A DNA stretch of 64,000 bases, taken from an uncultured Clostridia bacterium (lineage in GTDB: Bacteria; Bacillota; Clostridia; TANB77; CAG-508). Positions 52,291-55,732 of this stretch are shown piece by piece. Position 1 is the stretch's first letter; every line of letters starts with the position of its first letter. The notes under the pieces were generated by a model. It worked only from the letters and a program-made list of their open reading frames with translations. It was not told the DNA's origin and did not search any database. Location of the stretch: the NCBI GenBank assembly GCA_948524275.1, contig CAOSLI010000005.1:16968-80967 (forward strand). The letters are read 5' to 3'. The translations under genes were made by a program, and so were the position numbers.

Positions 52291-52992
52291 ATGAATGAAG
52301 AGAATTTGGATAACATCGTAATTGACGGTCTTGATGAGACCTATGCTGAGAATATGGACGCAGATGAAGTAATTGCTCCGAGCATTATGCTTGTTGATTT
52401 TGTCATCGACGGCAGCGGCTCGATGGACATTTACGAGAAAGCGATGCAGGAGTGCTTGGAACACTACAAAAGTGCAATTGCGGGTTCAAAGCAGGCAGAT
52501 GAGATGATGGTAAGTAAAACCATTTTTGAGTCTACAATCGTAACTGGCGGTTATGTAGCACCTGAGGATTTGAATACTGATTATTCCGCAGGTGGGATAA
52601 CTAGACTGTATGATGCTATCATTGACAGACGCCAGCGTATGTTGGACTATATGGACCAGCTTAGAAATAATGGTACAAGTCCTCGGGCATGCTTGGTAAT
52701 CTTGTCTGATGGATGTGATAACGGTTCTAGAAATCGCGCAAGTGATGCTCGTCAGGCTGTTCAGGATTTGACATCTAAGGAAATCACTGTAGCGTTTATC
52801 GCATTTGGTCAGGATGCATTTGGTGTTGCCGATCAAATCGGTGTTAAACCGCAGAACGTCAAGGAAGTAAGCAATGATGAAAGCGAACTCCGCAAGGTAA
52901 TAGACCTTGTATCCAAGAGTGCTATTTCGGCTTCGAAAAGAGCAAGTGCTGGTGCAGGCGGTAACAGCGATGCTGGCTTCTTCGATGTATAA
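52291..52992 (+). CDS. vWA domain protein (TerY-like)
   Basis: MIDAS motif DGSGSM, ...TRLYDAI, and LSDGCDN. Confidence 0.7.
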   Translation: MNEENLDNIVIDGLDETYAENMDADEVIAPSIMLVDFVIDGSGSMDIYEKAMQECLEHYKSAIAGSKQADEMMVSKTIFESTIVTGGYVAPEDLNTDYSAGGITRLYDAIIDRRQRMLDYMDQLRNNGTSPRACLVILSDGCDNGSRNRASDARQAVQDLTSKEITVAFIAFGQDAFGVADQIGVKPQNVKEVSNDESELRKVIDLVSKSAISASKRASAGAGGNSDAGFFDV

Positions 52993-53077
52993 GCTTACAA
53001 TTTGTAAGTAAGACAACAACTAAAGGCTGGAGAGGGATTGCATTGCAGTTCCTCTCCTTATTATTGGAGGTAGCTCT

Positions 53078-53956
53078 ATGAATTTAGATTTAAGCAATCG
53101 GTTCTTTAAGAAAAATTCCGTATATACCACTGACAGTGAAAAAGCTGTTGAGGTAGATAAGGATGATTCTGCAGAAGCTGAGGCTATTGCAGAAACTGCA
53201 AGCAGAGTTCAGGAAAAAACTGAACAAATTGCAGAGAGGCAGGTGGAGCAAAAGCCCAAAAGAAAACCTCTTTGCGTTTGTAAGATGGGCTCTGATCATA
53301 CCTTTGCCAATATGAACAATCATGATTTTGCATTTAACTTACTGAACATGAAAGTTGTTATGGATGGCTGTGGTTCAGGAAAACATTCTGAGGTTGGAAC
53401 AAGACTTTTTGGTCAGCTTTTTGCCAGAAAGGTAAAAGATTGCATTGATAAAGGTGAATCAGTTAATGAGGAAAACTTTATTGATGTGGTTGACAGCATA
53501 TTCAAAAAAATGTTGGAATTGTGTGATGACATATCTTTCATTTTTCAAAATTACTGTTTTACCATTCTGGTATGCCTTGAGACAGATGACGAGTTTGTGG
53601 TATATAGCTGTGGAGACGGTTACATTATCAAGGAAAATGAAGAAGGTATTACTTTCGACAAACTTGATGATGGAGAATATCCTTGCTACTACGTTTACAA
53701 CTATATCACAGACAAGTCAGCTTTAATCGAGTATAAAGATGGGGTAAGCTTCAAGGTTTCTCGCTTTGCTAAAGCGGACTATTCAAATGTTGGCGTGGCA
53801 AGCGATGGCTTGAGATATTCGGAAAAGCTTCTGGATACCGAAAAAAACAAACTGATGGAGCTCTTGTCAGAAGGAAAAGGTCCTCAAATTGGAAAACTCA
53901 TCAATCGGAATAATAAATATGGAATGTTCCATGATGATATTTCAATCTGCTTCTAA
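53078..53956 (+). CDS. PP2C-family Ser/Thr phosphatase-like protein
   Basis: VMDGCGSG, CGDGY and ASDG metal-binding blocks. Confidence 0.5.
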   Translation: MNLDLSNRFFKKNSVYTTDSEKAVEVDKDDSAEAEAIAETASRVQEKTEQIAERQVEQKPKRKPLCVCKMGSDHTFANMNNHDFAFNLLNMKVVMDGCGSGKHSEVGTRLFGQLFARKVKDCIDKGESVNEENFIDVVDSIFKKMLELCDDISFIFQNYCFTILVCLETDDEFVVYSCGDGYIIKENEEGITFDKLDDGEYPCYYVYNYITDKSALIEYKDGVSFKVSRFAKADYSNVGVASDGLRYSEKLLDTEKNKLMELLSEGKGPQIGKLINRNNKYGMFHDDISICF

Positions 53957-53962
53957 GGAGGT

Positions 53963-55732
53963 TTGAAAATGGCAATTACATTTGCAAGCCGGAGCCGCGT
54001 TGAAAGCTTAAAGAAATTAGGCGAAGGCGGAGAGGCGGCAATCTATGAGTATGACGCAAAGAGAGTGCTCAAGATTTTCAATGCTAAGACGGACTTGGCG
54101 AGGAAAGAAAAGAAGGTCAAATACTTTATTTCCATAAAGGGGAGTCTTCCAAAAAATGTTATTGGCCCTGAGGAAATAGTTACAGTGGGCGGTAAATTTG
54201 CAGGATATGCAATGAGAAAGTTGGCGAATGCTGAAGATTTGCATATGCTTGCTAAACCTAAATTCTTAGTTACCGCAAGGTTTACGAATCAAGATGTACT
54301 GCAAATTGTAACAAACTTAGGAACACATCTTGGAGCATTACACTCAGCAGGAATTATTGTAGGAGATGTTAGTGACCAAAATTTCCAAGTATGTGGAAAG
54401 AGCGATTACTTCATCGATGTTGATAGCTGGGGTGCAAAGGGTAAATTTAATCCTGACGCATATACAGAGCTATTTACATGTCCTGACAGTTACGCTGCTG
54501 ACGGAAGCATAGCATTCTCGGAAGAGAATGAGAATTACAATTTTGCAGTTCTCGCTTTCAATATGCTGGCAAAGATTCATCCTTTTGCAGGCACGTATCT
54601 TCCTGATAAGAACATTTCAATTTTGGAGAGAATGAAAAGAAAGCTTTCCATTGTAGGCAGTCATAAGGGAGATATAAAGATTCCTAAAAGTATTGGTAGT
54701 TGGAAATGGATGTCTCCTAAACTCGAAGAGGATTTTATCCAGATCTTCGAGCAAGGGAAGAGGATGGACATCACGCCTGACCTTCAAGAGCTTCTCGGGA
54801 ATATGAAGCATTGTAGCAGTCATGACATTTACTACTACTCTAAGTTTAGTGAATGCCCGCTGTGTAATGAGAATGCTAAGGTCAAGATGGCTCCTGTTGC
54901 GGCAAAGGTTACTCAAACTGCAAATGGACCGCAAGTTACTGTTATATTTGCAGGTGGTGACTGTGCATACATTTTAAGTAGCATACATTATCTCAACCGA
55001 GAGGGTTACGCTGTTCACTTTGATACTGGACGGAAATTTGCAATTACTCGAGGAAAGAGAGTTGATTTCTCTAATGATGGAAAAGTCGTGTATGTGACTG
55101 ATGATGATACCATTGAAGTTTACGACGCAAGCGACCAGCTGATTTCCACAATTGAACGTATGCACAAGACTAATTATCTTGTAAGAGATAGAGATATCTA
55201 TTACGTTGATAACGGAAATAATTTTGTTAAGCTGTCAGTAACTAAGTCGGGTAATATGCCTCACTATTTAGGGCAGGTATATAATCCTTTGCTTACGGTT
55301 TCAGACGACGGAAATGTACTGGTTGCATCTATGTATCCGAAAAAGGCAATTATCACCACACCGGATTACAACTTTGAGGTAAGCTATACTGGTAGAATCA
55401 AGGAGTATGCTATCAAGTATGATAAGCAGACGAAAAAATGGCTCTTTGTTTACCAGAAGGCTAACGGAAAATACCGCACTATGGTATTTGCTAAAAACCA
55501 GATTGAATATGATGATGACGTTATACTGTATAACGCTCAGACTTTGAGCAATATAGACTTCTTTAACAACACCATCTATGATCCGGCAGATGGCAAAATC
55601 ATTGGAACCAACATTGTCAAGAACACTGCAAGAGAATTCGAGTGCAGTGTAGTAGATGAAAGCTCCGCGCTTAAGTTTACAGGCAAAGGCTTTAAAATCT
55701 ACAACAAGAGCAAGATTTATAACTATGGTTGA
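53963..55732 (+). CDS. protein kinase-like domain plus a C-terminal beta-rich domain
   Basis: Gly-rich loop GEGGEAAIYE, Lys in VLKIF, catalytic-loop-like HSAGIIVGDVSDQN, and IDVDSWG. Confidence 0.5.
   Translation: MKMAITFASRSRVESLKKLGEGGEAAIYEYDAKRVLKIFNAKTDLARKEKKVKYFISIKGSLPKNVIGPEEIVTVGGKFAGYAMRKLANAEDLHMLAKPKFLVTARFTNQDVLQIVTNLGTHLGALHSAGIIVGDVSDQNFQVCGKSDYFIDVDSWGAKGKFNPDAYTELFTCPDSYAADGSIAFSEENENYNFAVLAFNMLAKIHPFAGTYLPDKNISILERMKRKLSIVGSHKGDIKIPKSIGSWKWMSPKLEEDFIQIFEQGKRMDITPDLQELLGNMKHCSSHDIYYYSKFSECPLCNENAKVKMAPVAAKVTQTANGPQVTVIFAGGDCAYILSSIHYLNREGYAVHFDTGRKFAITRGKRVDFSNDGKVVYVTDDDTIEVYDASDQLISTIERMHKTNYLVRDRDIYYVDNGNNFVKLSVTKSGNMPHYLGQVYNPLLTVSDDGNVLVASMYPKKAIITTPDYNFEVSYTGRIKEYAIKYDKQTKKWLFVYQKANGKYRTMVFAKNQIEYDDDVILYNAQTLSNIDFFNNTIYDPADGKIIGTNIVKNTAREFECSVVDESSALKFTGKGFKIYNKSKIYNYG

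Follow-up and report, generated by a model that had tools for sequence, protein, structure and literature searches.

A mobile nicotinamidase, vWA, phosphatase and kinase unit of gut Clostridia and huge phages as a candidate switch on NAD+ recycling

A 64,000-nucleotide stretch of the genome of an uncultured Clostridia bacterium (assembly GCA_948524275.1, contig CAOSLI010000005.1, positions 16,968 to 80,967; this whole stretch is called the window) contains an island with three consecutive genes for a small von Willebrand factor A (vWA) protein, a PP2C-type phosphatase and a protein kinase. The conserved unit is one gene longer than this triad: it consists of four genes, nicotinamidase, vWA, PP2C and kinase, and in the window it stands directly behind the two genes of the NAD+ rebuilding pathway NARP1. 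The preferred interpretation, with a probability of about 0.5, is that the unit is a mobile, phage-linked NAD+ recycling element in which the triad would act as a phospho-switch on the nicotinamide step.

The conserved four-gene unit

The initial annotation placed a vWA/phosphatase/kinase triad at 52291-55732, and three open reading frames (ORFs) on the + strand are indeed found there (52291-52992, 53078-53956 and 53963-55732). As had been noted, NAD genes precede the triad on the same strand, with the correction that the upstream gene starting at 51355 belongs to the unit. Full-length relatives of the kinase with 52-78% identity occur in 19 species-level genomes, all of uncultured gut Clostridia. 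The order nicotinamidase-vWA-PP2C-kinase is present in every kinase-centred genome locus that reaches upstream, and no close relative of the kinase (at least 52% identity) was seen without the nicotinamidase where upstream DNA is present. The survey of homolog neighborhoods suggested as a check on the triad finds it linked in every close relative, with the PP2C gene adjacent to its vWA and kinase partners in all of them.

A metagenome scan centred on the nicotinamidase gives 80 loci from about 38 lineages. Among the 36 loci with at least 4.7 kb of downstream sequence, the full triad is present in 27, a partial triad in one and no triad in eight. The triad-less loci are either operons of the NARP1 genes, NadE and nicotinamidase (Adps-Namat-NadE-nicotinamidase) or members of one lineage with the gene alone. 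Since the close kinase always occurs with the enzyme and the enzyme is able to lack the kinase, the dependence is one-sided, which is the pattern of a regulatory add-on. Distant relatives of the kinase (30-40% identity) keep the set, as in locus L035 where the order is PP2C-kinase-nicotinamidase-vWA (L numbers denote loci outside of the window). In L036 extra genes are inserted between nicotinamidase and vWA and between vWA and PP2C, and the set is retained.

The first gene likely encodes a divergent PncA-like nicotinamidase. It starts at ATG 51355 within a long ORF (51286-52269); the ATG is preceded by AGGAGG and the homologs begin with MKTNYEQIV. The Asp-Lys-Cys triad (D51/K197/C243) is invariant in 11 homologs and aligns with the motifs of yeast Pnc1 (2H0R). 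The residues D93-x-H95...H163 (WPYHC), which we take to be the metal site from the known PncA and Pnc1 structures, are also invariant. The best PDB matches of the family profile are nicotinamidases, namely yeast Pnc1 (2H0R, 1e-7) and M. tuberculosis PncA (3PL1, 7e-7). The window protein scores below the curated cut-offs (Pfam Isochorismatase 20.2 vs 27; NCBIfam PncA 39.6 vs 174), and a phage ortholog scores above the Pfam cut-off (28.7 vs 27). The product is a divergent isochorismatase-like hydrolase.

The vWA protein narrowly passes the Pfam VWA cut-off (25.3 bits vs 23.8) and falls below that of the vWA-TerF-like model (20.2 bits vs 29.4). It contains the motif D40-G-S-G-S44-M, and the full metal ion-dependent adhesion site (MIDAS) set D40/S42/S44...T104...D140 is kept in 27 homologs, phage copies included. 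The vWA domain and the DGSGSM motif of the earlier description are both present. Three serines in the C-terminal tail (S208/S210/S215) are conserved across 27 sequences. The assignment of the next gene as a PP2C-like phosphatase was correct; apart from the Pfam match (Table 1), the metal-binding Asp residues are conserved (D83, D96-G, D180-G, D243-G and D286-D287).

A GC-rich hairpin followed by a U-rich tract separates the vWA and PP2C genes. Of the 17 other Clostridia loci that were folded, 14 clearly have the hairpin; its sequence differs among loci, while the pairing, through compensatory changes, and the U tract are kept. The intergenic slices of L019 and L021 are too short to judge, and the hairpin of L018 is without a U tract. 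The element probably works as an internal terminator or attenuator and so adjusts how much enzyme and vWA protein is made relative to PP2C and kinase. Its conservation as an internal terminator would imply a tuned stoichiometry inside of a single unit.

The kinase gene likely starts at ATG 53969 (ORF from 53963), and its ribosome-binding site, AAGGAGG, overlaps the stop codon of the PP2C gene. By sequence alone the kinase is below the Pfam Pkinase cut-off (19.1 bits), and the fold that had been proposed for it is borne out by structure prediction. An AlphaFold2 (AF2) model based on 39 homologs has a mean pLDDT confidence score of 92.8 and matches solved protein kinases in Foldseek with a probability of 1.00. 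Residues G20-G21-E22, K35, D133, N138 and D150/D152 are invariant or near-invariant in the 39 homologs, down to about 25% identity. The beta-rich C-terminus of about 290 residues, also noticed before, is real. A zinc ribbon immediately follows the kinase domain (C282-x2-H285...C296-P-x-C299, residues conserved). In the AF2 model residues 323-586 then form 28 strands in seven groups of four, which is read as a seven-bladed beta-propeller. An earlier model from 16 close sequences had a poor C-terminus (pLDDT 66) and is superseded by the 39-sequence model; it too matched solved kinases in Foldseek at a probability of 1.00, and it aligned to the kinase-WD40 part of LRRK2 across 553 columns. Among the viral structures of BFVD, COG3391 and WD40 proteins match the C-terminal part, and a Myoviridae kinase matches over the full length at 1.5e-23. 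The kinase family comprises 148 clusters at E<1e-30 and has weak matches to the polyvalent-protein kinase family PF18762.

The same combination of kinase, zinc ribbon and propeller is also found at the C-terminus of giant proteins of about 1500-1690 residues (P0169, P0184, P0222 and about 60 more clusters; L031 8001-12788). The approximately 950 residues that precede it have no Pfam match. One of these giant proteins has a vWA gene immediately upstream.

Phage copies, NAD gene neighbors and leader RNA

The kinase and the nicotinamidase match the same four phage records in tblastn searches. The four genes are contiguous in LR756500.1, a 462-kb huge phage with a guanine-plus-cytosine (G+C) content of 24% in which profile scans place NadE 3 kb upstream, and in the faecal phage scaffold MT837596.1. 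They are spread across 4-12 kb in LR745208.1 (485 kb, G+C 55%) and LR756511.1 (595 kb). The largest metagenome lineage (L074) comprises 21 loci from the human gut on contigs of 210-306 kb and is 92% identical to MT837596.1. Around its module lie 13 tRNA genes and the genes of an SPP1-type portal (1e-51) and a Mu F-like protein, together with a weak terminase-like match. Scans of IMG/VR with the kinase alignment and with two distant kinases gave no match, and megablast of the island against phage and plasmid collections gave none.

The initial annotation was right about the atypical, foreign character of the island, which has a G+C content of 0.39-0.41 compared to 0.27-0.28 in the flanks. The G+C content drops to the flank level at about 55770-55812, so the end of the unit is the end of the island. 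The G+C content of the module exceeds that of the flanks by 5-15 points in all 15 Clostridia loci measured. The flanks in the window are ordinary chromosomal genes (SUF system, ABC transporters and cysteine desulfurase). Because of the phage copies and the raised G+C content between such flanks, the module is a mobile, phage-linked element lodged in the bacterial chromosome.

The L074 lineage has an array of 11 tRNAs (3231-6407) upstream of the nicotinamidase and two more tRNAs downstream (14781-15002). A 492-residue DUF2828/DUF7788/vWA protein (7460-8938) is encoded immediately before the nicotinamidase. The PncA-like gp275 of phage G (PMC12484599) was considered as a close relative of the nicotinamidase and rejected, since it is absent from the tblastn matches.

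The NARP1 pathway consists of an Adps gene directly upstream of Namat, and copies on bacterial chromosomes have already been reported (PMC12774641). It is mainly a phage pathway and provides counter-defence by NAD+ reconstitution (PMC12774641; bioRxiv 10.1101/2024.02.11.579819). The Prs-like gene of the window is under every NCBIfam Prs cut-off and lies 17 nt upstream of the Namat-clade gene. The product of the latter scores 484 bits to 9W5X/9W5W, the Namat structures of phage SPbetaL1, vs about 170 bits to classical Nampt structures. Judged by sequence, the pair at 48673-51068 is NARP1.

The pairing of the triad with NAD genes had been called unusual; it is instead recurrent, being seen with three NAD gene sets that are non-orthologous and also in phages. 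NadE, Adps and Namat stand beside the module in the window and in L005, L013, L018, L020 and L021, and the NadE arrangement of the window recurs in these five loci and in L041. A divergently oriented NadD-NadE-PncB set is found in L007, L025 and L027, where the nicotinamidase completes the Preiss-Handler route. A short NH3-type NadE adjoins the module in L026 and L062. In addition, a distant kinase homolog is directly followed by an NAPRTase gene in L030, and another is followed by a NadD-like/NUDIX gene and NadE in L034. Among the 14 genome loci with at least 5 kb of upstream sequence, seven have NAD genes, six have an orphan gene, u314 (described below), and three have neither; L025 and L027 have both. 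An identical kinase protein occurs with the NARP1-NadE block in L005 and without it in L004. This suggests two separate modules that tend to co-locate.

One of the triad-less operons, Adps-Namat-NadE-nicotinamidase-NrtR, is on a 1.7-Mb bacterial contig and ends with a regulator that has NrtR_WHD and NUDIX domains. This five-gene operon is at 5865-10622 of L108, and related ones are seen in L067, L068, L110 and L111. The arrangement points to a variant of NARP1 in which the deamidated route is handled as well.

The four genes are preceded by a structured leader RNA. From the promoter to the nicotinamidase start, about 140 nt are conserved at the nucleotide level between loci with only 50-80% protein identity. 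When the 21 sequences are folded one by one, 17 form the same unbranched four-helix hairpin; in three other leaders the block GAGGCAAACAG pairs with CUGUUGUCUC instead. Since the raw MAFFT alignment misplaces the variable loop, RNAalifold finds next to no structure in it, and the structure was taken from the single-sequence folds. A covariance model (R1), seeded with 13 nicotinamidase leaders and realigned with Infernal, finds the motif in all related loci. It also finds a second copy upstream of u314 in eight non-seed loci (E 6e-11 to 1.5e-3). In the 29-sequence alignment, 90.7% of cells pair compared to 33-42% in slid controls, and 19 of the 26 pairs are changed on both sides compared to 7.2 +/- 1.6 in shuffles (0/500 as high), figures that lean towards structure because the alignment was fitted to the model. 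Helix P1, or part of it, could instead reflect DNA operator half-sites (GTCAAT / GTCAATTGAC); helices P2-P4 covary independently. No Rfam family, NAD+ riboswitches included, overlaps 51213-51354 at E<=10. The motif was not found in IMG/VR viral contigs and is absent from the phage copies examined. The leader is a candidate for a new cis-regulatory RNA.

The apical loop of the leader reads AAGGAGG in most homologs and AAGGGGG in the window, and is followed by the start codon of a mini-ORF. A conserved peptide was considered as an explanation of the leader and rejected. The mini-ORF has 2 to about 30 codons and its frame varies, which argues against a peptide, while the nucleotide blocks stay conserved.

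The orphan gene u314 (about 295-315 residues) is directly upstream of the nicotinamidase in many loci and is absent from the window. Pfam, PHROG and PDB give no match for it, and none of its 139 homologs is named. By eye, an R...STT/SSTK...ExE pattern like that of ADP-ribosyltransferases is seen; this is unconfirmed and is not used in the argument.

The best explanation of 51184-55812 is one regulated transcription unit, comprising a promoter, the leader RNA, nicotinamidase, vWA, the internal hairpin/terminator, PP2C, the kinase with zinc ribbon and propeller, and a terminator. A -10-like box is present at the equivalent position in the homologous loci. Promoter-like sites are no more numerous in the region as a whole than chance would give, so only position and conservation count as evidence for the promoter at 51184-51212. 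The promoter-like sites before Adps (48557-48591) and before the nicotinamidase (51184-51218), both on the + strand, have a 17-mer in common, TGTGATATAATTGT(G/C)AC, which spans the extended -10 and the start region. The common 17-mer may point to shared control.

The proposed switch and its alternatives

NAD+ depletion is among the commonest bacterial defences against phages, and the rebuilding of NAD+ by phages (NARP1-3) is a recent and active field. To our knowledge, no regulator of the NARP1-3 pathways has been described. In the proposed mechanism, the nicotinamidase would turn nicotinamide, the product of NADase attack or ADP-ribosylation, into nicotinate. The nicotinate would feed a route ending at NadE, parallel to NARP1, which makes NAD+ from ADP-ribose and nicotinamide. 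The kinase would sense a partner via the propeller and zinc ribbon and phosphorylate either the vWA tail with its three kept serines or the nicotinamidase itself. The MIDAS-bearing vWA protein would serve as the adaptor or substrate, and PP2C would reset the switch. The internal terminator would keep the enzyme and vWA protein in excess over PP2C and kinase, and, only in the bacterial copies, the leader RNA would add a layer of control at transcription or translation. The choice of a specific phospho-target, vWA tail or enzyme, is distinctly doubtful.

Several observations weigh against the recycling switch. The substrate of the enzyme may differ from free nicotinamide, because the window protein reaches neither the Pfam nor the NCBIfam cut-off. 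Only obligate linkage points to the vWA protein or the nicotinamidase as the kinase target. A nicotinamidase beside NARP1 would compete with Namat for nicotinamide, and the model must assume regulated partitioning. In about half of the Clostridia loci, NAD genes are missing within 10 kb (L004, L012, L024, L029) or u314 takes their place. The more distant kinase homologs are not always beside a nicotinamidase (L031, L032, L034).

The resemblance to TerY-P systems bears on the main alternative functions. PADLOC, which includes TerY-P models, gives no hit to the triad proteins at E<=0.01, and at E<=10 only two weak and unrelated ones (PDC-S61, PD-T4-6). The TerY-P triad comprises a vWA protein, PP2C and a Ser/Thr kinase whose C-terminus carries a zinc ribbon (Anantharaman 2012, via PMC11090510). 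The module has the same small MIDAS vWA protein, PP2C and kinase with zinc ribbon and the same predicted phospho-switch logic. It differs in the extra seven-bladed propeller, in a vWA protein that is under the TerF/TerY-type Pfam cut-off, and in its place with nicotinamidase-like and NAD genes rather than with Ter/tellurite-resistance, McrBC/CoCoNuT or restriction genes. Related modules are reported as stand-alone defence systems with the same three domain types in one operon (Gao 2020, via PMC11090510), and the defence TerY-P systems have an oligonucleotide/oligosaccharide-binding (OB) fold after the kinase (PMC11090510). The kinase in the window instead has a zinc ribbon followed by the propeller, with no OB fold, and the module is itself phage-borne. 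Membership in the validated TerY-P defence family is not established, because there is no PADLOC match and a propeller is in place of the OB fold. The comparison with the TerY-P triad made in the initial annotation holds for architecture and linkage and needs revision in view of the fourth gene, the propeller and the PADLOC result. The defence-island context given there is doubtful, as the module occurs in jumbo and huge phages and its neighbor is the NARP1 counter-defence pathway; the defence-island framing of the triad is probably wrong.

A TerY-P-type anti-phage defence, in which the triad senses infection and the nicotinamidase is an effector that destroys nicotinamide and so blocks phage NARP1/NARP2, seems quite unlikely. 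The domain set equals that of the TerY-P triad (PMC11090510), related modules are reported to be stand-alone defence systems (Gao 2020, via PMC11090510), the island is atypical in G+C content and variable in presence, and a HerA-like ATPase cluster adjoins it. However, PADLOC is silent except for the two weak hits, the kinase is followed by a propeller rather than an OB fold, and phages themselves carry the module beside portal and tRNA genes. Moreover, the module adjoins NARP1, the very pathway that it would sabotage, and the nadD-nadE-pncB neighbors would make NAD+ from its product. The four genes and leader could alternatively be the normal control of nicotinamide salvage in Clostridia, of which phages took up a copy. 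This is an unlikely explanation, which draws on the complete Preiss-Handler route divergent from the unit in L007, L025 and L027, on the nicotinamidase in an NrtR-type NAD operon on the 1.7-Mb chromosome contig, on the ordinary chromosomal genes that flank the window copy, and on a leader that resembles a metabolite-control element and is missing in those phage copies that were examined. It is difficult to reconcile with a module G+C content 5-15 points over the flanks in all 15 Clostridia loci measured, with phage carriers that range from 24% to 55% G+C, with a NARP1 block that is variable beside an identical kinase (L004 vs L005), and with NARP1 being mainly a phage pathway (PMC12774641).

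Host takeover is improbable. Under this explanation the targets of the kinase and PP2C would be host proteins, for instance defence NADases or the transcription machinery, and the vWA protein and nicotinamidase would be co-transcribed passengers with roles of their own. The breadth of the kinase family (148 clusters at E<1e-30, including the 1500-1690-residue proteins with a C-terminal kinase-propeller), the weak PF18762 matches and the huge phages in which the four genes may be several kb apart would fit with it. Nevertheless, the four genes are repeatedly found in tight adjacency, their starts overlap or are coupled, the set is retained when gene order changes, and the conserved internal terminator implies a tuned stoichiometry in a single unit.

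The recycling switch may also be part of something larger, namely a system of NAD conflict shared by jumbo phages and gut Clostridia. Here a propeller sensor kinase and a phosphatase would switch a vWA-nicotinamidase pair and so decide whether nicotinamide set free by NADase defences is recycled to NAD+, and the bacterial copies would be under a new class of leader RNA, a candidate riboswitch, that also controls u314. This extended version is speculative and, taken as a whole, rather unlikely. If the recycling switch is true, NAD+ reconstitution would have in the kinase/phosphatase/vWA set its first candidate post-translational control, one that is present in abundant jumbo phages of the human gut as well as in Clostridia islands beside NARP1. 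The long-unexplained TerY-P type triad would also gain a concrete and testable substrate. The leader RNA, with its covariation, two different downstream genes and no Rfam match, is a testable new cis-regulatory candidate tied to NAD metabolism.

Other known systems share parts of the arrangement. NrtR-controlled NAD salvage operons (prs-nadV-...-nrtR), reportedly described by Rodionov et al. in 2008, have a regulator gene after the enzyme genes, as does L108 with its relative of the nicotinamidase. The window differs in having vWA, PP2C and kinase genes plus a leader RNA instead of a Nudix-type repressor. NARP1 shares with the module the theme of rebuilding NAD+ from NADase products and is its immediate neighbor in the window, but it consists of two genes for which no kinase, phosphatase, vWA or nicotinamidase partner is known, and the module also occurs without it. 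The Deinococcus radiodurans operon DRA0331-0334 (bioRxiv 10.64898/2026.01.23.701218) is similar by description in that it encodes a signalling module of vWA protein, Ser/Thr kinase and PP2C; as described there, it also has an FHA protein and is tied to DNA damage, and it has no nicotinamidase, NAD genes or propeller. Targeted literature searches, of incomplete coverage, found no account of a nicotinamidase combined with TerY-P. Neither a PncA-like gene nor the triad appears in two broad surveys, one on phage NAD/ADP-ribose systems and one on jumbo phages.

Feature coordinates and the right flank

Table 1. Coordinates of the features in the window, followed by those of leader copies and u314 in other loci
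Feature	Position	Strand	Evidence
Glutamine-dependent NAD+ synthetase NadE, left end of GC-rich island	46460..48379	-	NCBIfam NF002730 819 bits (cut-off 473); Pfam NAD_synthase and CN_hydrolase
Prs-like enzyme, probably Adps (NARP1 ADP-ribose pyrophosphokinase)	48673..49494	+	phrog_619 5e-60
Nampt-like enzyme, Namat clade (NARP1 ligase)	49512..51068	+	phrog_448 2e-161
Terminator-like hairpin and U tract closing the Adps-Namat unit	51099..51135	+	12-bp stem, dG -21.6 kcal/mol, z -5.8, then UUUAAUAA
Promoter-like site of the four-gene unit	51184..51212	+	TTTACA, 17 nt, TGnTATAAT; 11/12 matches and extended -10
Structured leader RNA, about 100 nt, long four-helix hairpin	51217..51314	+	Covariance model R1, 87 bits
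Divergent PncA-like nicotinamidase, 304 aa, first gene of the unit	51355..52269	+	Conserved active site, profile vs PDB
Small vWA protein, intact MIDAS, Ser-rich C-terminal tail	52291..52992	+	Pfam VWA; phrog_7371 at 9e-11
GC-rich hairpin with U-rich tract in the vWA-PP2C spacer	53029..53057	+	dG -22.3 kcal/mol, z -4.2
PP2C-type phosphatase	53078..53956	+	PF13672 at 46.8 bits
Ser/Thr kinase with zinc ribbon and predicted seven-bladed beta-propeller, 587 aa	53969..55732	+	AF2, Foldseek, conserved residues
Terminator-like hairpin and U tract ending the unit and the island	55770..55812	+	15-bp stem, dG -31.3 kcal/mol (folded stretch), z -5.3, then UUUUCU
Leader copies	L016 6152-6248; L017 420-519; L019 6148-6248; L028 6206-6305; L043 2357-2456; L007 5839-5932; L023 4711-4804; L025 5863-5956
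u314	L007 5978-6922; L016 6249-7175; L019 6298-7194; L023 4826-5788; L025 5993-6946; L028 6302-7240

The right flank of the island (56697-62007, + strand) contains four genes. One encodes a HerA/T4CP-like ATPase (PADLOC mad8 3e-14; Pfam TrwB_AAD_bind/DUF87). The others encode a Cys-rich protein of 236 residues, a Zn-phospholipase-C-like protein of 232 residues and a protein of 585 residues with a 2H/LigT phosphoesterase domain. These genes may be a defence-like cluster at the G+C content of the host.

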